IMG/VR virus record: IMGVR_UViG_2651869781_000012
Reading direction: 5' to 3' (one strand)
DNA: 9,182 nucleotides
Source of the DNA: a virus
Taxonomy: Duplodnaviria > Heunggongvirae > Uroviricota > Caudoviricetes
A program made the position numbers and the translations under genes. Of the stretch, positions 252 to 9,182 are shown piece by piece. A model generated the notes under the pieces. That model saw only the letters and a list, made by a program, of their open reading frames with translations. It was not told the origin of the DNA and made no database searches. Numbering within the stretch: position 1 is the first letter of the stretch; every line of letters starts with the position of its first letter.

Positions 252-794
252 TTACTTGTCTTTATCCGGCTGAAACTTATCAGGCACATTTCCGGTAGTT
301 TCCATCAGATAATCGGACAGCATTCGCGGGATGTTTTCATCAAGTTTTGTGCATGCGTTACAGGCTCTGACAACTTCTTTTTTCAGGCCATCCAGCATGA
401 CGGGGGTCATCTGTGGGAAGCTCCTTTGCATAGTAAGCGGGAGGCTGTCCATGATTGATGAAATCTGACTCGCCAGTTTTGAAAGCGCGTACATGCAAAA
501 CTCTGTATCAATCACGTCACCGCGATCGCGCTCGTTTTTAAGTTCCTGCGCCTCCGCCTGTGCTGTCAGTAATCTGATCCTGACTCGTAAGAGTTCATCA
601 TCATCAATCTCGCCTTTGTCGTTTGTAAGCTGGCTAATTGCATTGTTAACCCTATTGTCTATCACGCTGGCAACATCATAAAACGCCTCACGGCCTTTAC
701 GTTCAACGGGAGTCACTCCCCACTTGTCGAATGCTGTAGCACTTACCCGGCAGCTTTGCGCCATGGTTTTTTTGTTCATCAGGTGCGATTTCAT
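252..794 (-). CDS. Terminase small subunit, lambda Nu1-like
   Basis: 180-aa ORF. The C-terminal two thirds resemble lambda Nu1 as recalled from memory (ours ...LTAQAEAQELKNERD...FCMYALSKLASQISSIMDSLPLTMQRSFPQ...IPRMLSDYLMETTG versus lambda ...LTRAQADAQELKNARD...FCTFVLSRIAGEIASILDGLPLSVQRRFPE...IPGLLSEYIEQSG). The N-terminal HTH region is alignable but divergent. ATG at 794 is preceded by a weak GGGA; in-frame alternatives are TTG at 797 and ATG at 779 or 764. The gene starts about 135 bp downstream of cosN, as in lambda. Confidence 0.85.
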   Translation of the reverse strand: MKSHLMNKKTMAQSCRVSATAFDKWGVTPVERKGREAFYDVASVIDNRVNNAISQLTNDKGEIDDDELLRVRIRLLTAQAEAQELKNERDRGDVIDTEFCMYALSKLASQISSIMDSLPLTMQRSFPQMTPVMLDGLKKEVVRACNACTKLDENIPRMLSDYLMETTGNVPDKFQPDKDK

Positions 795-822
795 CAATAT
801 CCCAACTTGGTCAAGGTTTCAG

Positions 823-927: not shown

Positions 928-939
928 AGGTCGCCGCCC
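928..939 (-). other. cosN-like cohesive-end site (lambda-type cos)
   Basis: The minus strand reads GGGCGGCGACCT, identical to the lambda 12-nt cohesive end as I recall it. Flanks on both sides also resemble lambda: cosQ side GGGTCCTTTCCGGCGATCCGGTAGGCTACG versus lambda GGGTCCTTTCCGGTGATCCGACAGGTTACG, and cosB side CGCGGTTTTTCGCTATTTATGA versus lambda CGCGGGTTTTCGCTATTTATGA. Confidence 0.8.
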
Positions 940-995
940 CGTAGCCTACCGGATCGCCGGAAAGGACCCGCCAGCCAGAACGGGCCCTAATTTCA

Positions 996-1390: not shown

Positions 1391-1732
1391 TTACACACGA
1401 GCCAGCGGCTGAACAGAAATACCTGAGCCAACAAACGCGGCAACCTTTGCCGACAGTTCTTTTACAGACTCAGGCCAGTTCAGAGCATCAACATTTAAAA
1501 CACCTGTCTTATAAACCTGTGCCTGTGTTTTTTTCGCTGTGTCGATTTGTACAGCGGAAACATAAACCGCTTTGCCTGCGCTCGTTCCATCCCATACCAC
1601 TAGCGCACCAGTTGCATCTTCCTGCATCAGTGGCGTAAACGCAGGTATTACCCCTTTATTGGCTGAAAATATCCCCAGCGTAGTAACCAGTGCTTCAGTG
1701 CCAGACATGAGTTCAGTGTAATGAGTAGCCAT
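1391..1732 (-). CDS. Head decoration protein, lambda gpD-like
   Basis: 113 aa. TPLMQEDATGALVVWDGTSAGKAVYVSAV and ...NWPESV...AAFVGSGISVQ parallel lambda gpD [29 protein letters not shown] and ...LWPEAA...TAFAGTAISIV (from memory). SD GGGGGAG precedes the ATG; the start is 9 bp after the capsid gene stop. Confidence 0.85.
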   Translation of the reverse strand: MATHYTELMSGTEALVTTLGIFSANKGVIPAFTPLMQEDATGALVVWDGTSAGKAVYVSAVQIDTAKKTQAQVYKTGVLNVDALNWPESVKELSAKVAAFVGSGISVQPLARV

Positions 1733-1741
1733 TGCTCCCCC

Positions 1742-2788
1742 TTAGCCAATGCGAACGGTAACAAAACGATTGATGCGGGCCGGTATTGGCTGTGGTGCTG
1801 AATGTGTCTGCACATATTCAATAGCCGGATCACCAGGCACAATATAGTTTTTCGGTACAAGTTCGGCTTTAGTCAGCCCCATCCGGATTAGCTCCGGATC
1901 CTGAATACCGCCATAAGCGACAATCCCCTGAAGAGCCGTATTGCCAAGCACCATCAAATCAGGATCAAGGAAATATTTTTCAGTTCCGTCCTCGTCGGTA
2001 TAACGCCCGCTGTAAACAACAATCGCAACATCGCCCATATACCCTTTAAAACTCACCGAATCACCAAGGTCTTTAAGGGCCGTTTCCAGTTCGGAATTAG
2101 AACCACGACGAGTATCCAGAGCCTCTTTTATCGCCCTGAATGAACGGTATTTCTTCCATACATTACCGCCCATAATGATAATATTAGTGACGCCCTCACT
2201 AAATTCTGCGTAGCTCTCAATATCATCATTTGGATCAAAAGCTTCTTTATCCTTACCTGACCACTCAGCACCGCCAGACTGAGTGATGATATTTTGTGGT
2301 TTAATATTCCAGTCCAGCTCATAACGTTCAATACCATCGCCCTCAATGATATTTTTCCCCGTTGTGATTGCCTGAACGGCAAGCCATTCAATACGTGCAC
2401 GAATAGCTTTAGCCTGATTTACAATCGCCTGTTTAACTTTAATATTACGCGCTCCAAAAGCATTGTATTGCTCAGGTGATACACCAGCAGGGCGCACAGC
2501 TAACTTATTTGGATCAATGCTGCTTTTCGGTTTCATATAGCCAGGGCGAATTGTTTTTGATTCGTATCCCTCATCTCGTGAAACTTTACTGCCCACCATA
2601 GGAGAGCAAAACGCCGCGATCGGGATATTTGGATCGTCGATCGTATCAAGAATAATGTCTCTCGATTCAAACATTACCGAGCGAGTGAAAAACAAACTGG
2701 TAAACAACGCATTTAATTTTTTTTGCACATCTTCAGCATTAGCCACCTGCACAAGCTGTGTAGGCGAATATAAGTCAACCATACTCAT
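1742..2788 (-). CDS. Major capsid protein, lambda gpE-like
   Basis: Long identical runs with lambda gpE as recalled (ITQSGG.EWS..DK...DP.DDIE.YA...GV.NII, FRSF.A.KE.LDTRRGSNSELETA.KDLG..VS.KG..GDVAIVVYSG.Y, MVLGNT). Both proteins begin MSM. Start at 2788 (MSM) or 2782; AAGAGG sits 6 nt upstream of 2782. The six-frame ORF's 5' extension to 2869 is unlikely to be coding. Confidence 0.9.
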   Translation of the reverse strand: MSMVDLYSPTQLVQVANAEDVQKKLNALFTSLFFTRSVMFESRDIILDTIDDPNIPIAAFCSPMVGSKVSRDEGYESKTIRPGYMKPKSSIDPNKLAVRPAGVSPEQYNAFGARNIKVKQAIVNQAKAIRARIEWLAVQAITTGKNIIEGDGIERYELDWNIKPQNIITQSGGAEWSGKDKEAFDPNDDIESYAEFSEGVTNIIIMGGNVWKKYRSFRAIKEALDTRRGSNSELETALKDLGDSVSFKGYMGDVAIVVYSGRYTDEDGTEKYFLDPDLMVLGNTALQGIVAYGGIQDPELIRMGLTKAELVPKNYIVPGDPAIEYVQTHSAPQPIPARINRFVTVRIG

Positions 2789-2955
2789 CCTCTTTACATT
2801 CATTACAAATAATTGTGAATATATTCTATTACCGATGTCTGCTATGCGAATACATGCAACCAAGTGCAATGTTGTATAAAATATGCCGTGACAACTTCAG
2901 TGCTGATAATTCGTGTTAATGTATTTACTTCCTTTGGTCGGGATTTATGTAGCAT

Positions 2956-2999: not shown

Positions 3000-3422
3000 T
3001 TAAAACGGTATATTATCGCCGTACGGATCATCATTCCCCGACTGTTGTTTTGCCCTGTTCAGTGCGTCAGTGGCCTGCCCCTGCTGGCCTTTTTTGCCGC
3101 CCGGTCGCGCTGTTCGCGCACTGATCACGCTGTCTGCGATAACCTGCCAGCCCTGCCGCGTTTCGCCGTTCTGGCCTGTCCACTGGCTTACCTGCATGTT
3201 ACCCGCCACGCTCACCAGTTCGCCTTTGTGGTGTTTTGCCAGTGCGTCGGCCTGTCTGCCAAACGCCAGGACGGATAACCACATCATCGCCGTTCCGTCA
3301 TCTGCCTGGCTGCACGGAAGGGGGACCGCCATACTAGCCATCGCCATTTGTGTACCCTTGCTGGTGGTCTTTAACTGCGGGTCAGCCACCAGCCGTCCGT
3401 AAGCCGCTATCTGTGCTGTCAT
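3000..3422 (-). CDS. Single-stranded DNA-binding protein (SSB)-like, OB-fold with C-terminal IPF tail
   Basis: 140 aa. The N-terminus (AAYGRLVADPQL...) and core (WLSVLAFGRQADALAKHHKGELVSVAGNMQVSQWTGQNGETRQGWQVIADSV) follow the SSB OB-fold pattern. A Gly/Gln-rich linker precedes a C-terminal ...DDPYGDNIPF, reminiscent of the E. coli SSB DDDIPF tail. The ATG overlaps the upstream stop (ATGA). Confidence 0.75.
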   Translation of the reverse strand: MTAQIAAYGRLVADPQLKTTSKGTQMAMASMAVPLPCSQADDGTAMMWLSVLAFGRQADALAKHHKGELVSVAGNMQVSQWTGQNGETRQGWQVIADSVISARTARPGGKKGQQGQATDALNRAKQQSGNDDPYGDNIPF

Positions 3423-3664
3423 GCTGTCTGCTCTCCGGTTTTAACGTTGATGGTTGTCACCTGTTCCGCTTCGGCAATCTCCCGTTCTGTCAGCGTGGCA
3501 AAGTTTGCAGCTGCCGTTGTCATGAATGCGCTAATCAGTTCGGGATGTGCTTTCGCATATCCTTCCCCGGCGTTGCGGTCGATGATTTTTATCGACACCC
3601 TTAACCAGTGTTCCGTCAAATCAAGGGCGTGCGATTGTGATTTTTTTGTGTGCTTCGCTGTCAT
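3419..3664 (-). CDS. Hypothetical protein (81 aa), translationally coupled to the SSB-like gene
   Basis: ORF in the same operon orientation with a stop/start ATGA overlap at 3419-3422. No recognisable motif; the upstream SD is weak. Confidence 0.55.
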   Translation of the reverse strand: MTAKHTKKSQSHALDLTEHWLRVSIKIIDRNAGEGYAKAHPELISAFMTTAAANFATLTEREIAEAEQVTTINVKTGEQTA

Positions 3665-3707: not shown

Positions 3708-3940
3708 CCCTTCACCTGTTCACCTTTTGATATTTTATCTTTTAATTCATAATGTTAAGGGGTGAACAGTTTCACAAAAACTATTCACCAACTGTTCACC
3801 ACTGTTCACCCTTGAAGCTCAATAAACAATCAAAAAGGTGAACAGTGAATAGTTTGGTGAACAGTTCATAAATAACTGTTCACCCTATAATATACTGATA
3901 TAAAAGATATTTATAACAGGGTGAACAGTGGTGAACAGTT
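3708..3940. repeat. Iteron cluster, P4-type origin-like (TGTTCACC octamers in both orientations)
   Basis: TGTTCACC at 3717-3724, 3793-3800, 3803-3810 and 3877-3884. Reverse complement GGTGAACA(G) at 3761-3769, 3837-3845, 3856-3864, 3920-3928 and 3930-3938. Degenerate copies near 3708-3716 and 3783-3789. AT-rich spacers; begins immediately after the primase stop at 3952. Confidence 0.7.
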
Positions 3941-3951
3941 ATTCCATAAGT

Positions 3952-5769
3952 TTAATTTTTGCTATCGTCATTAGTGACCGATACACATGATGGCATCCAG
4001 TCTTCTGATTCCTCCGTCAGTGTCACGTTTGAACGCAAACCGTGCTTCGTTTTCCGTTTCATATACTCCCTGCCATATTCCGCCATTGCCCCCGGCATAT
4101 CTTTACCGAAGCGCGTCAGTGTTACAGGTTTACCAAACCCATGTGCCTTCATATAAGCCAGATAGGCATGATAGAGATACCTGCGCGGGCTGAATGGCAC
4201 AATTTCAGCATTACCCACTAACAGGCCATCACACATTACCGACGCCATGAGATAGCCGCAGAAGTCCACCAGCGAATCACCTTCACGCTTTATCGCGAGT
4301 GCTTCTTCTGATTTCTGCTGCTCATATAAAAGGCGTCTGGCTTCGTCCTGGTCAGCAAACCGTGTAAGCAGATGACGAATCACTACCGCCAGCTCACCTT
4401 CTATTTTTTCCGCCAGCATTGAATCGCGTTCGTTCTCCGGTACAACTTCCGAAAAATTGAATATCACCCGACGGCGCGAGATCCCCCCACTGCGGTCACT
4501 GAATGACATAGCGTTATTGTTAACCGCCAGCACTACTGCCGGGATACGCGTTGAATATGGGGCTTTATGTTTCGGGTCGATTGCCACCTTGTCACCGCCT
4601 GTAATAGCCTTAATTCCCGCCCCATCACCAGCGTAGCGGGTCATATCCGGCATGATAATCAGCGAAAAGCCAACCACTAACGCGCGTTCCCTTGCATCTT
4701 CCAGCGCCTTCATGCTCGCTGATACTGTATTAGCCTTACCCGCCAGCATGGTGCAAATCTCCGCCATCACGCTTTTACCACTTCCCCCTGGACCTGTTAC
4801 CTCAATGAATAACTGCCAGTCGTACCGGTTCGCCAGCACCATGAATAATGCAGCCAGTACGCGATCCGCCTTGCGGTCATTCTCAGCCACCGAACGGCGT
4901 AACCACTTCCAGAAATTCGGCGCATGTGTTGCCAGCGTTTCCCCCTCTGCTGGTGGGCTGAAAGGTAATTCACTGGCAATTAACAACCAGTCGTTTTTGT
5001 TATGCTCCCGAAAATTACCTGTTCTGGTATCAAATACCCCGTTACTGAATCCAATCAGGTTACGGGCTGTATTCCCCATTACAGGCAAACTTAACTTCAT
5101 GGTATCGACCGCCGATTTAATGGCGTTCTGCGAATAGCTGATCTCCGCATCAATGAAAATCTGCGCCATAGCACGCTGTAACTCTTTATCCTGAACCGGC
5201 TCCCATACAACGCCGTTGTAATGGTGAACAGTGTCAGAGTCGGCATGAATCGCCAGTTCACCGCCATAATGTGCCAGGAGAACTTCGCCGCGTTGACTTG
5301 CTCCCATCTGGTTAAGCGCCAGTGATGAAGCGTTATCGTCTTTTACCCGCTCTTTTTTCTTTACAGGCAGTTCAACTACCTTTTTCTTTTCCGCCAGCTC
5401 TCCCCGCTCACGTTCCAGATATTCGCGCCAGTTCTCCCGTTTCTGGCTGTGCATTCCTTCAGGGTAATAATCAGCATCCCTGACACCTGCCGCTGCCAGT
5501 TTCTGCCCGATGGTATTAACAAGCCCCGGACGCAATAACCCCGCCTGGTAGAGACGCACGCGATAGCGTCCGTCCGGTACGATTTGCAGGTTGTCCAGTT
5601 CGGCAAGTTGTTGCTCTCCAAGCCAGACAGGTGGCACGTTATCGCCAGCCAGTCGCCCGTCCTGTTCCTGCCACTGCTTCGCATGTGCCCACGCATCACT
5701 ACCCGCAAAAATGATGACTTCCGTCATTTTGTCACGCGGCTGGTGTTTTAAATTTGGCGCTTTTTTCAT
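3952..5769 (-). CDS. Phage/plasmid primase-helicase, P4 alpha-like (SF3 helicase domain)
   Basis: About 605 aa. Walker A GPGGSGKS lies in the context FIEVTGPGGSGKSVMAEI, typical of P4-family primase C-terminal/D5-type helicase domains. ATG 5769 has GGAGAGAG upstream and overlaps the upstream gene stop (ATGA). The six-frame track start at 5784 is a GTG. Confidence 0.9.
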   Translation of the reverse strand: MKKAPNLKHQPRDKMTEVIIFAGSDAWAHAKQWQEQDGRLAGDNVPPVWLGEQQLAELDNLQIVPDGRYRVRLYQAGLLRPGLVNTIGQKLAAAGVRDADYYPEGMHSQKRENWREYLERERGELAEKKKVVELPVKKKERVKDDNASSLALNQMGASQRGEVLLAHYGGELAIHADSDTVHHYNGVVWEPVQDKELQRAMAQIFIDAEISYSQNAIKSAVDTMKLSLPVMGNTARNLIGFSNGVFDTRTGNFREHNKNDWLLIASELPFSPPAEGETLATHAPNFWKWLRRSVAENDRKADRVLAALFMVLANRYDWQLFIEVTGPGGSGKSVMAEICTMLAGKANTVSASMKALEDARERALVVGFSLIIMPDMTRYAGDGAGIKAITGGDKVAIDPKHKAPYSTRIPAVVLAVNNNAMSFSDRSGGISRRRVIFNFSEVVPENERDSMLAEKIEGELAVVIRHLLTRFADQDEARRLLYEQQKSEEALAIKREGDSLVDFCGYLMASVMCDGLLVGNAEIVPFSPRRYLYHAYLAYMKAHGFGKPVTLTRFGKDMPGAMAEYGREYMKRKTKHGLRSNVTLTEESEDWMPSCVSVTNDDSKN

Positions 5770-6065
5770 TTCTGCTCTCTCCACGCGGCAATCATGTTTT
5801 TCAGTTCCTGTAGTTTTTTATCCACATCCACACGTGACACATGGTTATTTCTGGAAGTCGGGATTTCCCGCCGGAATCTGCAAATAAAGATCTCCACGTT
5901 CAGCGAACTAAGAAATGAATATCCATCACGGATAAAATAAACACGGTCAAACATCAGTTCTTTTACCGTTACTCTGTTACCGTTCTTATCCAGATAAATA
6001 GCGCCGGGGATAATTTTGTGGTGTGCATAACCGCTGGCAGTCAAGCCAGATAAATATGTTCTCAT
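5766..6065 (-). CDS. Hypothetical protein (99 aa), operon member upstream of the primase
   Basis: ATG 6065 with GGGGA upstream; its stop overlaps the primase start. No recognisable motif. Confidence 0.6.
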   Translation of the reverse strand: MRTYLSGLTASGYAHHKIIPGAIYLDKNGNRVTVKELMFDRVYFIRDGYSFLSSLNVEIFICRFRREIPTSRNNHVSRVDVDKKLQELKNMIAAWREQK

Positions 6066-6071
6066 GATTAT

Positions 6072-6392
6072 TTATCCCCGATTTGAATCAGTATTCGCTT
6101 TCTTTATGGCATTTAATGCATCTGTGGCATTTTCAATGGTGCACCGTAACGAAATATCAAACTGCCCAAGCATTGCCAGTAACAAACCGATATTACCCAT
6201 ATCAATGCGCATGGCCTTTTCGTCATAGTCCTCATTTTCTGACGCATGCCACATCAGGCTACCAATTGACGCAATACCCATTGATATATTGTCAGTAGCC
6301 CCATCCGCAGCGGAATAAACCTTTTTAGCAATATCATGCTCACAGTTAAAATGCGGATTAATCAGGTACTGGTAACTGGTCATGTCAGGCAT
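6072..6392 (-). CDS. Hypothetical protein (106 aa)
   Basis: ATG 6392 is preceded by AGGGGG at 6 nt spacing and overlaps the upstream ORF stop by 8 nt. No recognisable motif. Confidence 0.6.
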   Translation of the reverse strand: MPDMTSYQYLINPHFNCEHDIAKKVYSAADGATDNISMGIASIGSLMWHASENEDYDEKAMRIDMGNIGLLLAMLGQFDISLRCTIENATDALNAIKKANTDSNRG

Positions 6393-6588
6393 GGAACACC
6401 CCCTGACGAATACGGGCAGTAAATACCATCACGCAGCCATCAGGAGATTGCTGGCGAGCTTCCTGTTCGCTGGTGGCCTCAATGTGAATCACGCGCGGTT
6501 GTGCGGTGCTCAGGGCGATAAAACGCCAGATGTATTTATTCAGGTTGTGCGAGTCCCGCCCTTGCGGGTGTGTGGTATGATTTAACAT
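6385..6588 (-). CDS. Hypothetical protein (67 aa), first gene of the primase operon
   Basis: ATG 6588 is preceded by GAGGT at 4 nt spacing. This is the C-terminal 67 codons of the 306-aa six-frame ORF, whose upstream part overlaps the plus-strand genes and promoter region and is probably not coding. Confidence 0.5.
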   Translation of the reverse strand: MLNHTTHPQGRDSHNLNKYIWRFIALSTAQPRVIHIEATSEQEARQQSPDGCVMVFTARIRQGVFHA

Positions 6589-6673
6589 AGCTACCTCGAT
6601 ACGCTTTCTATCGTTGGTGGTTAGAAGCCCTGCGAGTGGTAACGACACTTGCGGGGCTTTGCATTTATGCACC

Positions 6674-6757
6674 TTGACAACCTCAAGGTGTGGCCCACTA
6701 CATTCTTTAGGTGTGGCCCACGTCAAGAGTTTTATTTGTGCTTTTTCTGTGTATACT
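6674..6757 (+). promoter_or_regulatory. Divergent promoter/operator region with two copies of GGTGTGGCCCAC
   Basis: TTGACA at 6674-6679. Direct repeats GGTGTGGCCCAC at 6687-6698 and 6710-6721, each containing the near-palindrome GTGGCCCAC. TATACT at 6752-6757 lies about 30 bp upstream of the RHH gene ATG. The region sits between divergently oriented genes at 6588 (-) and 6788 (+). Confidence 0.4.
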
Positions 6758-6787
6758 GTCCCCCACCAATCCAACAGAGGAATAGAA

Positions 6788-6967
6788 ATGGCAACGGGTA
6801 CAACAAACGCAAAATCACAAGCTCTAAAGGCTCGTGTACCACACGAAATAGTAAACGCCATGGAATCAGTGAAAGAATCAGGCGAAAGCACATCACAATT
6901 CATCATTGCGTCAATGCAAGGCGAGATCAAACGCCGCCAGCGACGCAAAGCCAAGGAGTCAGAATAA
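6788..6967 (+). CDS. Ribbon-helix-helix (CopG/Arc-like) DNA-binding protein, 59 aa
   Basis: AGAGG at 6776-6780 precedes ATG 6788. The sequence KSQALKARVPHEIVNAMESVKESGESTSQFIIASMQGEIKRRQRR fits a beta-strand plus two helices RHH layout. Transcribed divergently from the primase operon. Confidence 0.6.
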   Translation: MATGTTNAKSQALKARVPHEIVNAMESVKESGESTSQFIIASMQGEIKRRQRRKAKESE

Positions 6968-7024
6968 TCACTATCAGCGCCGTGGTGTGAGTAACTACGG
7001 CGCATTGCTATGCAGGTGCTTACC

Positions 7025-7204
7025 ATGAACGATAAAGAGTTAAAAAAAACACCACCACAAACACTGAAAGGACAGCGCAAAAAGATAGCGCATGAGCATG
7101 AATCAGAAAGATTCGCCCCCTGTTCTTTTGCTCTTGAGAAATTCCTTAAGGAGCACAAGAAAAAGCTATCATTGCAAACCTGGGAACGAACCGAATCTGA
7201 CTGA
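7025..7204 (+). CDS. Hypothetical small lysine-rich protein (59 aa); coding status uncertain
   Basis: ATG 7025 is preceded by AGGTG (7014-7018). It lies between the RHH gene and the plus-strand terminator. Highly charged, no recognisable motif. An alternative ATG is at 7010. Confidence 0.3.
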   Translation: MNDKELKKTPPQTLKGQRKKIAHEHESERFAPCSFALEKFLKEHKKKLSLQTWERTESD

Positions 7205-7268
7205 TCAAATTGCCCACCAGCCAGCAAATCGCTATGATGTTCGGGCTTATGTTTAGTGTTTTCCCATT

Positions 7269-7297
7269 GGCGACCGCCCCCGGTCGCCTTTGTTTTA
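7269..7297 (+). terminator. Rho-independent terminator
   Basis: Stem GGCGACCG(7269-7276), loop CCCC, stem CGGTCGCC(7281-7288), then TTTGTTTT(7289-7296). It lies between convergent plus-strand genes and the alpA stop at 7316. Confidence 0.6.
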
Positions 7298-7315
7298 TAT
7301 GTCATATGCTCCCCT

Positions 7316-7525
7316 TTACGCTGCCTTACCTGAATTAATGCGATCCCGGCTTTTAACCCATTCCATAACCTCGGACAGCAGCCAACCTACAGAACGCCCC
7401 CCCAGATTAAGACGTGACGGAAAGCATCCTTTTTTCTCCAGTTCATAGCGTGTAGTGCGACACACTCCAGTTAACTTACGACATTCATCCTCACGGATTA
7501 CGCGATCTTCATTTATTTCACGCAT
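7316..7525 (-). CDS. alpA: AlpA-family transcriptional regulator
   Basis: 69 aa. LTGVCRTTRYELEKKGCFPSRLNLGGRSVGWLLSEVMEWV matches the AlpA HTH pattern. Same orientation as the integrase, with an AT-rich upstream region. Confidence 0.85.
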   Translation of the reverse strand: MREINEDRVIREDECRKLTGVCRTTRYELEKKGCFPSRLNLGGRSVGWLLSEVMEWVKSRDRINSGKAA

Positions 7526-7943
7526 ACAAAAACCTACATAAAAATTACGTATATAAACTTTTCTCTTAGCTGTAGATATATGAGACCGGATATTACTTAG
7601 ATTCTTTTTTCACCTCTTAAATTAAAAACACAACCTTGCTAAAGGCTTTGTTCGCTAAGGTTCGTAGAAGCTCGTTAGTGTTTAAAATCGTGTCACGAGT
7701 TTTTAAGCGACGCAACAAAAAATGTCGTCATTTGGCATTACGCTTGAATTATCTCATTAAAAACAAATAGATAAACCATCAAGTGTTGGAACAATCAAGA
7801 AACAGAGAATAAAAACTCAGAAGAAGACATTCCAATTTTTTGATGGTTAACATATATAAAGCGAAGATATTTGCAGATATTTTCCGATATTCTACGATTT
7901 ATTCACGGCTGTAATCTCTTAAAGAAAAAACAGCCGTAATTTG

Positions 7944-9182
7944 TCAAGAATTTTGGGTGTAAATTCGCGGGGCCATAACAACGATTTTTTCATCATTGTT
8001 CTGGAGAAGCTCGAGACGGTCTACCCATAGATTAAGAGCATCACGTTTTGCATCAAGATAACGGGAGTGATTATAGACTCGTTGCATCCCCGGCATCTGG
8101 TGGGCGGTAAGCTGCTCGACAATATGCGGATCCACGCCTAAATCGTTCAGCATGGTTGTAAATGTGTGCCGGATGTCATGCAACGACCAAGGGGCTTGAT
8201 TAATGCGTCTGTGTGCCGTTCTTCCGTACTCTGATACGGATGATTGCCCTTTCAGTTCTCCAAGCAATAAGCCCGTGTGCCTGTTCTTCTCCACCAGCTT
8301 CGTGACGAACGGCAAAATGCTTTCCGGTATTGGCCTGAATATGGCGACCTTCGTTTTGCTGTGCTCCTTCGGTACTGTCCAGAGCATTTCTTTAAAATCC
8401 CACTCCTGCACCTCAGAGCGCCTTAGCTCGGTGGTACGGCATCCAAAAACAATCAGGAGGCGAATTAGGGCGCTGTAGTACGGCGGGAATATTTTGTCAT
8501 CCAGAGCGCGGAGTAATTCCCCAAGCTCCTTGTTTGTTAGTACGCGCTCGCTCACTTCTGCTTTTTTTCCCACATCACCGACAACCATATCATCAAGAAC
8601 GTTGCTGATTGCGTATCGTCGTTTTCGGCAGTACTTAAGCGCCTGTTTGCATACCTGTAGCAAAAATCCGGCAGATACCGGGCTTCGCTTTGCCATCTGG
8701 TCAAAACATGTCAACCAGTGCCGTAGCTCGCATTTTTCCAACGGCATAGCGCCAATCTGGCTGATTATGTGTTTATTGATCCGGCTTTTCAGTGATTCGT
8801 AGTCAGTGCGCTTTTCCTTTGCATACGATTCAAGCCAGTAAGTAAGCGCTTCCTTAACTGTCACGGGGGCTAACGCATCCTGTACAGCACGATTAAGCTC
8901 ATAGCGCGGATTTTTCCCCTCAGCCAGCCAGGCGCGACACTGTGCTGCTTTTTCCCTGGCTGCTTTCAGGCTCAGATCGGGATAATTGCCCAGTCTCAGA
9001 CGTTCCGGTGATACCTGCCTACCAGTTCCGGCCCTGTAAGTGAAATACCAGGTTAACAGGCCGCTGGTGGAATGTCTTACGCTAAGATTGCCACCGTCAT
9101 TAAAAAAGGCGTTTTTTGTGGTTGGTGATCCGCTTAATTTTCGTAAAAGAGTGTCGCTAAGTCTATGAATTGCGCTGCTCAT
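7944..9182 (-). CDS. int: Tyrosine recombinase / integrase, P4-type
   Basis: 412 aa. The N-terminal arm-binding-like region (DGGNLSVRHSTSGLLTWYFTYR...LGNYPDLSLKAAREKA) and C-terminal catalytic motifs (HDIRHTFTT; ...QRVYNHSRY) fit the family. The ATG is the last three bases of the window, so an upstream start cannot be excluded. Confidence 0.9.
   Translation of the reverse strand: MSSAIHRLSDTLLRKLSGSPTTKNAFFNDGGNLSVRHSTSGLLTWYFTYRAGTGRQVSPERLRLGNYPDLSLKAAREKAAQCRAWLAEGKNPRYELNRAVQDALAPVTVKEALTYWLESYAKEKRTDYESLKSRINKHIISQIGAMPLEKCELRHWLTCFDQMAKRSPVSAGFLLQVCKQALKYCRKRRYAISNVLDDMVVGDVGKKAEVSERVLTNKELGELLRALDDKIFPPYYSALIRLLIVFGCRTTELRRSEVQEWDFKEMLWTVPKEHSKTKVAIFRPIPESILPFVTKLVEKNRHTGLLLGELKGQSSVSEYGRTAHRRINQAPWSLHDIRHTFTTMLNDLGVDPHIVEQLTAHQMPGMQRVYNHSRYLDAKRDALNLWVDRLELLQNNDEKIVVMAPRIYTQNS

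Follow-up and report, generated by a model that had tools for sequence, protein, structure and literature searches.

The 9,182-nt stretch of DNA analyzed here (IMG/VR record IMGVR_UViG_2651869781_000012, referred to as the window) carries on its minus strand a gene for a coat protein of the lambda gpE type, named E', directly followed by a gene for a decoration protein of the gpD type, named D'. The two genes, at positions 1391-2788, are shown to be the first two of the late/packaging operon of a Gram-negative phage-inducible chromosomal island (PICI). On sequence evidence, their lineage is old, specific to satellites and subject to strong purifying selection. As a tentative explanation, held with somewhat less than even confidence, E' and D' may be working coat and cement proteins, which assemble on the portal and scaffold of the helper phage and are redundant with helper E and D.

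That PICIs carry such a pair, which the earlier note had not recognised, was described before (c1499/c1500, Fillol-Salom 2018); no paper assigning a function to it was found in the literature on PICI E' and D'. New here are the satellite-specific clade, the fixed gene order, the selection data, the counts of islands splitting helper E, a promoter-like element made of three TTGCAY repeats, and natural chimeras between helper and island genes. The pair is always tied to a cos/packaging module, yet the only knock-outs reported gave no phenotype. If E' and D' truly build or modify transducing particles, classical PICIs would be less dependent on helper heads than assumed, which would matter for the way virulence and defence genes are transferred and for PICIs as delivery vehicles. 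The TTGCAY element and the chimeras are concrete handles on the role of the pair.

Identity and order of the E' and D' genes

The E' open reading frame (ORF) extends from 2869 to 1742 on the minus strand, with two candidate ATG starts. The one at 2788, given in an earlier note on this DNA, produces a protein of 348 aa (MSMVDLY..., parallel to MSMY... of lambda). The one at 2782 produces 346 aa, corresponds to the RefSeq start in a 97%-identical island of E. coli W619, and has a better spacing from the AAGAGG motif. The W619 homologue is annotated as 'major capsid protein'.

E' matches the Pfam family Phage_cap_E (PF03864) with E=1e-41, over profile positions 4-327 of 329 (324 covered). By phmmer, it aligns end to end with lambda gpE (7VI9, residues 5-345, E=4e-76) and matches PDB 3BQW with E=8e-122. 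The AlphaFold (AF2) model (pLDDT 81), which contains a long helix at residues 110-141, was compared with known structures by using Foldseek, and gave TM scores of 0.90 to 3BQW and 0.86-0.88 to lambda gpE (0.86 to 7SJ5). With a full-length profile match and, in the predicted structure, the HK97 fold (N-arm, E-loop, spine helix, A and P domains), E' is confirmed as a member of the gpE-type major capsid protein family, for which assembly into a shell is predicted. The protein is co-linear with gpE, with small indels only and no added domain, and its sequence therefore gives no hint of an altered shell geometry.

Residue W308 of lambda gpE, which aligns with a codon at approximately position 1850 (minus strand) of the window, is invariant in 64 phage-type E proteins and is a tyrosine in 21 of 45 island-clade proteins, including the window E'. 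PDB 7SJ5 is the W308A mutant of gpE; this change may block assembly, and no paper confirming such a block was found. Identity between the island clade and lambda-type E has its minimum, 21%, in two segments, the N-arm (lambda residues 1-20) and residues 101-120, and its maximum, 75%, in the A-domain core (residues 221-240). In lambda, the N-terminal strand of gpD pairs with the E-loop of gpE and with the N-arm of a neighbouring subunit (PMC5701804).

D' matches the Pfam family HDPD (PF02924) with E=2e-15, SHP of phage 21 with E=3e-16 and lambda gpD with E=1e-12. Its model (pLDDT 82) superimposes on SHP and gpD with TM scores of 0.8-0.9 and a root-mean-square deviation of 1.3 A. As both the profile and the fold, the latter predicted for the monomer, are those of the family, D' is confirmed as a gpD/SHP family member, and binding as trimers at the three-fold sites of the expanded shell is predicted.

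On the coding strand, 9 nt separate the E' stop from the D' start, and D' is provided with its own ribosome-binding site, GGGGAG. Lambda shows the opposite order, D (5747-6079) preceding E (6135-7160), and D also precedes E in every phage record that could be cross-checked between the E' and D' searches; no phage lineage with E before D was found among the phage records compared. Two records with seemingly unusual architectures, P0081 (a D-E fusion) and P0048 (a duplicated E), were rejected, both being lambda sequences with a frameshift or assembly artefact; in P0081 the order is the usual D before E. The ORFs, profiles, folds and lambda coordinates thus confirm, far beyond chance, what the earlier note had seen, an E-like gene preceding a D-like gene in an order reversed with respect to lambda; both genes are intact and on the minus strand.

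An old, satellite-specific lineage under constraint

Homologues of E' were drawn from a collection of 5.8 billion proteins, and 110 full-length sequences were arranged in a neighbour-joining tree. Forty-five of them form a clade that includes the window and CFT073 proteins and no lambda-type E, with identities of at least 50% inside the clade and at most 45% to phage E. The clade is divided into two sub-clades, the window type and the CFT073 type, which are 55% identical to each other. Among 50,697 records the best phage match of E' is lambda E, at 41.5%, and all of the 436 matching records fall below 60% identity. The same holds for the 127 phage records matching D', which is 36-40% identical to lambda or any deposited phage protein.

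The earlier note would have given up its proposal for proteins essentially identical to E and D of a resident prophage, or for genes broken by frameshifts; E' is about 41% and D' 36-40% identical to the phage proteins, and both genes are intact. Its suggestion that the pair had been captured as a unit, if taken as a recent event, does not agree with membership in an old PICI-specific clade, and the reversed order is also unlike the outcome of a simple pick-up of a D-E block.

Conservation of the two genes was evaluated over 87 loci, where all 83 complete copies of E' and all 81 complete copies of D' are intact. In Superficieibacter, Kluyvera, Cedecea, Kosakonia and E. coli alike, E' has 346 aa and no indels. 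Across genera, the nonsynonymous divergence (dN) of E' is 0.05-0.14 and the synonymous one (dS) is saturated, with dN/dS ratios of 0.01-0.07; because of this saturation, ratios were re-estimated on pairs with dS between 0.02 and 0.8. The values obtained, approximate as they are calculated by the NG86 method, are 0.06 for window-type E', 0.13 for CFT-type E' and 0.10-0.13 for D'. Between the window and Kluyvera, E' is 86% and the primase 76% identical.

Synteny was analyzed on 80 IMG/VR loci, obtained by searching viral contigs with an alignment as query (a single-protein search of genome contigs gave 4 loci); many are near-identical E. coli sequences and do not count as independent observations. 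In 78 of them D' follows E' with a gap of 9-13 nt, the exceptions being one contig end and one chimera. The gene located after cos shuffles independently of the E'/D' type over the 80 loci: a window-type Nu1-like gene, a Nu1 gene 72% like that of lambda, RppA, or none. The comparison locus used for the packaging gene after cos was L002, positions 7660-8094.

The window-type E'-D' segment is covered for at least 80% in 395 of 5,426 complete E. coli genomes. In 32 of 51 window-type loci the island splits a helper E gene at codon 80; these helper genes share 64-100% identity, mostly at least 96%, with lambda E. In another 4 loci it interrupts helper B, so that 36 of 51 are embedded in helper E or B overall. 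Window-type islands located inside a lambda-type helper E imply that E' coexists with genuine lambda-type E. Taken together, clade, constraint and fixed synteny make the missing knock-out phenotype look like the result of a wrong assay, and point to a real function under conditions other than those assayed so far.

The promoter-like region upstream of E'

The spacer between ssb and E' is 217 bp long, the two gaps between E', D' and the helix-turn-helix (HTH) gene that follows being of 9 and 11 nt. It contains three TTGCAY repeats with a 10-nt period (2869..2844, minus strand), the third of which overlaps the -35-like hexamer TTCGCA of a sigma-70-like site (2850..2823), followed after 16 nt by the -10-like TAGAAT (2828..2823). 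A hairpin at 2954-2982, in the same spacer, scores as a terminator for the opposite strand only. When the spacers of five genera are aligned, the three repeats are almost the sole conserved element, and their flanks diverge.

The repeats were searched for with an N4 spacing. Nearly all window-type loci have a single exact copy of a two-repeat pattern, located 70-100 nt ahead of E'; an exact match is missing only in L005 and in L057, which ends upstream of E'. The pattern was found in none of 30 CFT073-type loci, and no copy of the repeats is present upstream of alpA. From the consensus match and the phylogenetic footprint, on which the promoter call is founded, the element looks like an activator-dependent island promoter of the late operon, with the repeats as probable activator site. 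The AlpA-like HTH protein encoded after D' is a candidate regulator of this promoter, with the reservation that linkage confounds the inference. The earlier idea that the pair is under island control is thus made plausible, as the genes point the same way as the island operon and a conserved promoter-like element lies ahead of them.

Chimeras between helper and island genes

Two loci contain reciprocal, in-frame chimeras of helper E and island E'. In L008, an ENA metagenome scaffold, the helper genes B-C-Nu3-D are followed by E up to about codon 243, joined (at about 3461-3469) to the C-terminus of E', D' and the HTH gene. In L056 (6001-7038), an IMG/VR isolate contig, ssb is followed by E' residues 1-237, joined to E residues 238-341, FI and FII. 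Both crossovers fall within the conserved LDTRRGSNSELETA stretch. The longest exact match between lambda and the window in the E gene is 11 nt, and the microhomology at the L008 junction is 8 nt; with exact matches this short, a mis-join by the assembler is unlikely. The L056 chimera was dropped as proof of a working chimeric coat, its host locus being a prophage remnant ridden with insertion sequences.

Other joined or recombined forms were observed. P0005 (463 aa, on one Logan contig) is a read-through fusion of E' and D' due to the loss of the stop codon; its E' is about 84% and its D' 96% identical to the window, and the same values apply to L050-L054. In P0005 the differences in E' lie within the first ~240 residues, which indicates recombination between alleles close to that conserved stretch. 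P0146 (194 aa, E. coli, annotated as terminase small subunit) contains D' and Nu1 domains in one protein (PF02924 and PF07471), a fusion that implies a deletion of the AlpA-like gene and cos in one genome.

The island

The island, a Gram-negative PICI of the EcCICFT073 family, is 10.2 kb long, and the window covers most of it. The features of the window are reported in Table 1. All of its long ORFs that have database support are encoded by the minus strand.

Table 1. Features of the window, listed from the integrase end of the island; the evidence or the position of each feature is given in the last column.
Feature	Coordinates	Strand	Evidence or remarks
int	9182..7944	-	
alpA	7525..7316	-	followed by small genes
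D5/P4-type primase (pri)	5769..3952	-	
Iterons, ten GGTGAACAGT copies	3715..3939	both	directly downstream of the primase gene
81-aa gene, then ssb	3422..3000 (ssb)	-	between iterons and E'
Promoter-like region of the E'-D' operon (predicted)	2823..2869	-	consensus scan, cross-genus conservation
E', lambda gpE-type HK97-fold major capsid protein	1742..2788	-	ORF, Pfam, PDB matches, model, W619 annotation
D', gpD/SHP-type head decoration (cement) protein, 113 aa	1391..1732	-	Pfam, SHP/gpD matches, model
AlpA-like helix-turn-helix gene, 127 aa	996..1379	-	Pfam AlpA 1e-8; PDB 8C3T 2e-10; PHROG 2790 2e-48
cos site (cosN 12-mer GGGCGGCGACCT at 939..928)	928..975	-	alignment with joined lambda ends
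Nu1-type small terminase gene, full-length (start 797, 794 or 779)	252..797	-	in the position of EcCICFT073 rppA

The genes int, alpA and pri-rep with its downstream origin are co-oriented, also with ssb, cos and Nu1, the size falls in the 10-20 kb range, and lysis and tail genes are lacking, as expected of a Gram-negative PICI. For EcCICFT073, helper-driven induction, excision and high-frequency transfer were shown experimentally (PMC6092414). The iteron cluster is expected to be the replication origin; an eleventh GGTGAACAGT copy is located inside the primase gene, at 5223, and none of 200 shuffles reached 11 matches. A mechanical ORF of 306 aa at 6385-7305 (minus strand) is probably not a gene; its W619 counterpart contains a small Icd-like gene on the minus strand and a YlcI/YnfO gene on the plus strand, the sole island gene on the opposite strand. 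A scan of the window against Rfam gave no matches.

In E. coli W619 the island is located between clpS and cspD, flanked by 25-nt direct att repeats 10,236 bp apart, and contains one extra small gene past the left edge of the window. Since the window carries no flanking chromosome, its insertion site is deduced from this relative, which lies outside the late genes of a helper, that is, not in a helper-embedded position.

The AlpA-like gene is the third of the operon, starts 11 nt past the D' stop, and is found after D' in the window-type loci that reach that far. The cosN 12-mer is identical to that of lambda. The flank on the cosQ side is also lambda-like, and on the cosB side the likeness is gone about 30 bp past cosN, a loss consistent with the island having its own small terminase. 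This is a Nu1 homologue, 37% identical to lambda Nu1 over 179 aa (Pfam Phage_Nu1 1e-22; PHROG 57 6e-52), with no match to Rpp structures; a helper-type cosN is combined with a packaging-specificity gene that is not Rpp.

No portal, protease, scaffold, large terminase, Sid- or Psu-like, tail or lysis gene was found in any island ORF by Pfam and PHROG scans of the window and of the rest of the W619 island. No scaffold gene, of the CpmAB type of Staphylococcus aureus pathogenicity islands (SaPIs) or other, was detected by profile. Every island ORF is accounted for, the small ones left over having hits solely in PHROGs to which no function is assigned; a distant fold relative of such scaffolds is still conceivable. 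The cos alignment, the Nu1 match and the ORF scans bear out the earlier description of the pair as satellite-borne, upstream of cos and Nu1, and without portal or scaffold partners; the search for flanking scaffold genes that it had called for gave none over the 10.24-kb W619 island.

A possible role of the pair

The role that we tentatively favour may be outlined as follows. A lambda-like helper would induce the island, and the operon would be transcribed from the promoter with the three TTGCAY repeats; in helper-embedded relatives, where island and helper late operon share one orientation, late read-through may also contribute. E' and D', whose genes lie close to each other, would be made together and in about equal quantities. 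E' would polymerise on the portal, scaffold and protease of the helper, which the island lacks, and the shell, made of E' alone or of E' and helper E together, would have the size of lambda. D' trimers would then cement the expanded lattice, where the N-arm of E', in lambda a part of the gpD site, is among the most diverged segments. The Nu1 homologue would steer the helper large terminase to the island cos, and four island copies (41 kb) would fit a lambda head. The pair would be a supply of coat normally redundant in standard assays, giving the satellite independence from helper E and D, and would matter most where helper E is missing, delayed or broken, as happens in the relatives inserted at codon 80.

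Several results weigh against this role. In EcCICFT073, the resident helper transferred the island no less after deletion of c1499 (E') or c1500 (D'), neither deletion relieved interference with lambda, and an island with c1499 replaced by cat was still transferred by the resident helper, lambda and phi80 (Fillol-Salom et al. 2018, PMC6092414). Expressed singly, the genes located downstream of the origin, except c1503 (rppA), gave no lambda inhibition, and the deletion of rppA fully restored plaquing (Fillol-Salom et al. 2019, PMC6739421). That E' and D' are incorporated into capsids is something we infer, and the compatibility of a 41%-identical E' with lambda Nu3, B and C is assumed. The change of W308 to tyrosine in window-type E' could reflect an altered assembly behaviour. 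Moreover, as the window island is chromosomal, the backup argument reaches it only through the sharing of modules.

A more far-reaching reading, possible but rather doubtful, takes E' and D' as a shell of the satellite's own, built with the natural lambda-type helper on stolen portal, scaffold and protease, and maybe altered in assembly through W308Y and the divergent N-arm. Its operon would be activated by the AlpA-like protein via the three TTGCAY repeats, and the island would be a 'half capsid-forming' PICI, between the classical and the capsid-forming ones (cf-PICIs). Unlikely, in our opinion, is a non-redundant effect on virion quality, by which incorporated E' and D' would alter the stability or persistence of particles, for instance their survival in the environment or their tolerance to pressure when they contain multimeric island DNA. 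This reading agrees with all of the data: traits of this kind would escape short transfer assays in the laboratory, the pair is always kept together under strong purifying selection despite the absent laboratory phenotype, and proteins of the gpD type stabilise filled heads (PMC5701804); the explanation overlaps with a redundant coat supply, as it also requires incorporation into the shell.

The earlier note had seen in the pair a plausible route to a smaller capsid, and E', alone or at certain positions of the lattice, could in principle force helper-nucleated shells to a smaller triangulation (T) number, with room for one or two copies of the island and excluding the helper genome. The coat homologue Ccm of SaPIbov5 is described as redirecting phi12 capsids (PMC8569155); PmCI172, which has a capsid homologue, makes small heads (PMC6092414; PMC6893505); the island is only 10.24 kb long, and the W308 contrast between phage and window-type proteins would also fit. 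For EcCICFT073, whose E' and D' are 55% and 54% identical to those of the window, the DNA packaged with lambda is however all phage-sized (PMC6092414), and the deletions just mentioned had no effect. The co-linearity of E' with gpE, the lack of Sid-, CpmAB- and scaffold-like genes by profile scans, and the fit of four island copies in a lambda head also argue against a change of size, which is distinctly unlikely.

Interference with the helper is a general PICI trait, and E', D' or both could exert it on helpers other than lambda, as poison or decoy subunits that spoil capsid assembly or by titration of scaffold and portal. A 75%-identical A-domain core makes mixed capsomers conceivable, and in-frame E/E' chimeras occur naturally. 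Yet neither the single expression of c1499 and c1500 nor their deletion changed the outcome for lambda, and a poison would require no matched cement protein, nor the low dN/dS typical of structural coat genes, so that this explanation is regarded as highly unlikely. PICIs do capture helper late genes (PMC10111431) and helper E x island E' recombinants occur, as would be expected if the pair were a functionless recombination remnant. E' is nevertheless far from near-identity with any phage E (41%), keeps its length across at least five genera with dN/dS values of 0.06-0.13 and 83 intact copies out of 83, and is found with D' in hundreds of complete E. coli genomes (395 of 5,426). The selection data effectively refute the remnant reading, which retains hardly any probability.

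Comparison with known systems

EcCICFT073 is the closest described element. Its genes are arranged as ssb, PerC, a 68-aa gene, major capsid, head decoration, a 137-aa gene, a 144-aa gene (RppA) and a 93-aa gene, and its capsid protein is the 3BQW sequence (801 bits, residues 1-351). The window shares with it the protein families and the order of the module, that is ssb, E', D', a small gene, cos, a packaging-specificity gene and a small gene, and 3BQW is the best structural match of its E' (TM 0.90). At 55% (E') and 54% (D') identity, however, the window belongs to a second sub-clade. It has an AlpA-like gene instead of the unrelated 137-aa gene and a full-length Nu1 homologue instead of RppA, has neither PerC nor the 68-aa gene ahead of E', and carries TTGCAY repeats specific to its type. 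A review by Dokland also mentions the EcCICFT073 capsid homologue together with packaging of normal size (PMC6893505).

Of 29 Gram-negative PICIs used as reference by Mageeney et al. (2023, PMC10111431), 21 have a capsid gene. The same authors described helper-embedded PICIs inside helper E, and suggested that the island copy serves as a backup. In many of the codon-80 islands of this type (11capE), the E'-D'-HTH module is 95-100% identical to the window type, and replication modules are common as well (pri of L020, 99%). The relatives of the window are chromosomal instead (clpS/cspD), and the integrase is only about 42% identical.

With lambda gpE and gpD and with SHP of phage 21, the island proteins share folds, lengths and co-linearity, D' keeping the N-terminal THY motif, and with lambda the island also shares an identical cosN 12-mer and a small terminase of one family. 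They differ in sequence (about 41% identity for E', 36-40% for D'), in gene order and in the replacement of W308 by tyrosine, and the island has no Nu3, C, B, W, FI, FII or A gene.

SaPIbov5 Ccm, compared by description and not by sequence, is likewise a coat-protein homologue on a cos-type satellite, and differs in redirecting capsid shape and size, whereas the EcCICFT073 relative showed no size change. The cf-PICI EcCIEDL933 is also a satellite with its own HK97-fold coat protein, and its capsid, 9GYI, is a distant fold match of E' (Foldseek rank 46). The cf-PICIs possess a full head and packaging set of portal, protease, connectors, HNH, TerS and TerL (bioRxiv 10.1101/2022.09.08.507074), whereas the island, in the window and the rest of W619, has coat, cement and TerS only, with no portal, protease, head-tail connectors or large terminase of its own. 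Being neither a cf-PICI nor, with no Sid or Psu, a P4-like element, the window element is a classical Gram-negative PICI.

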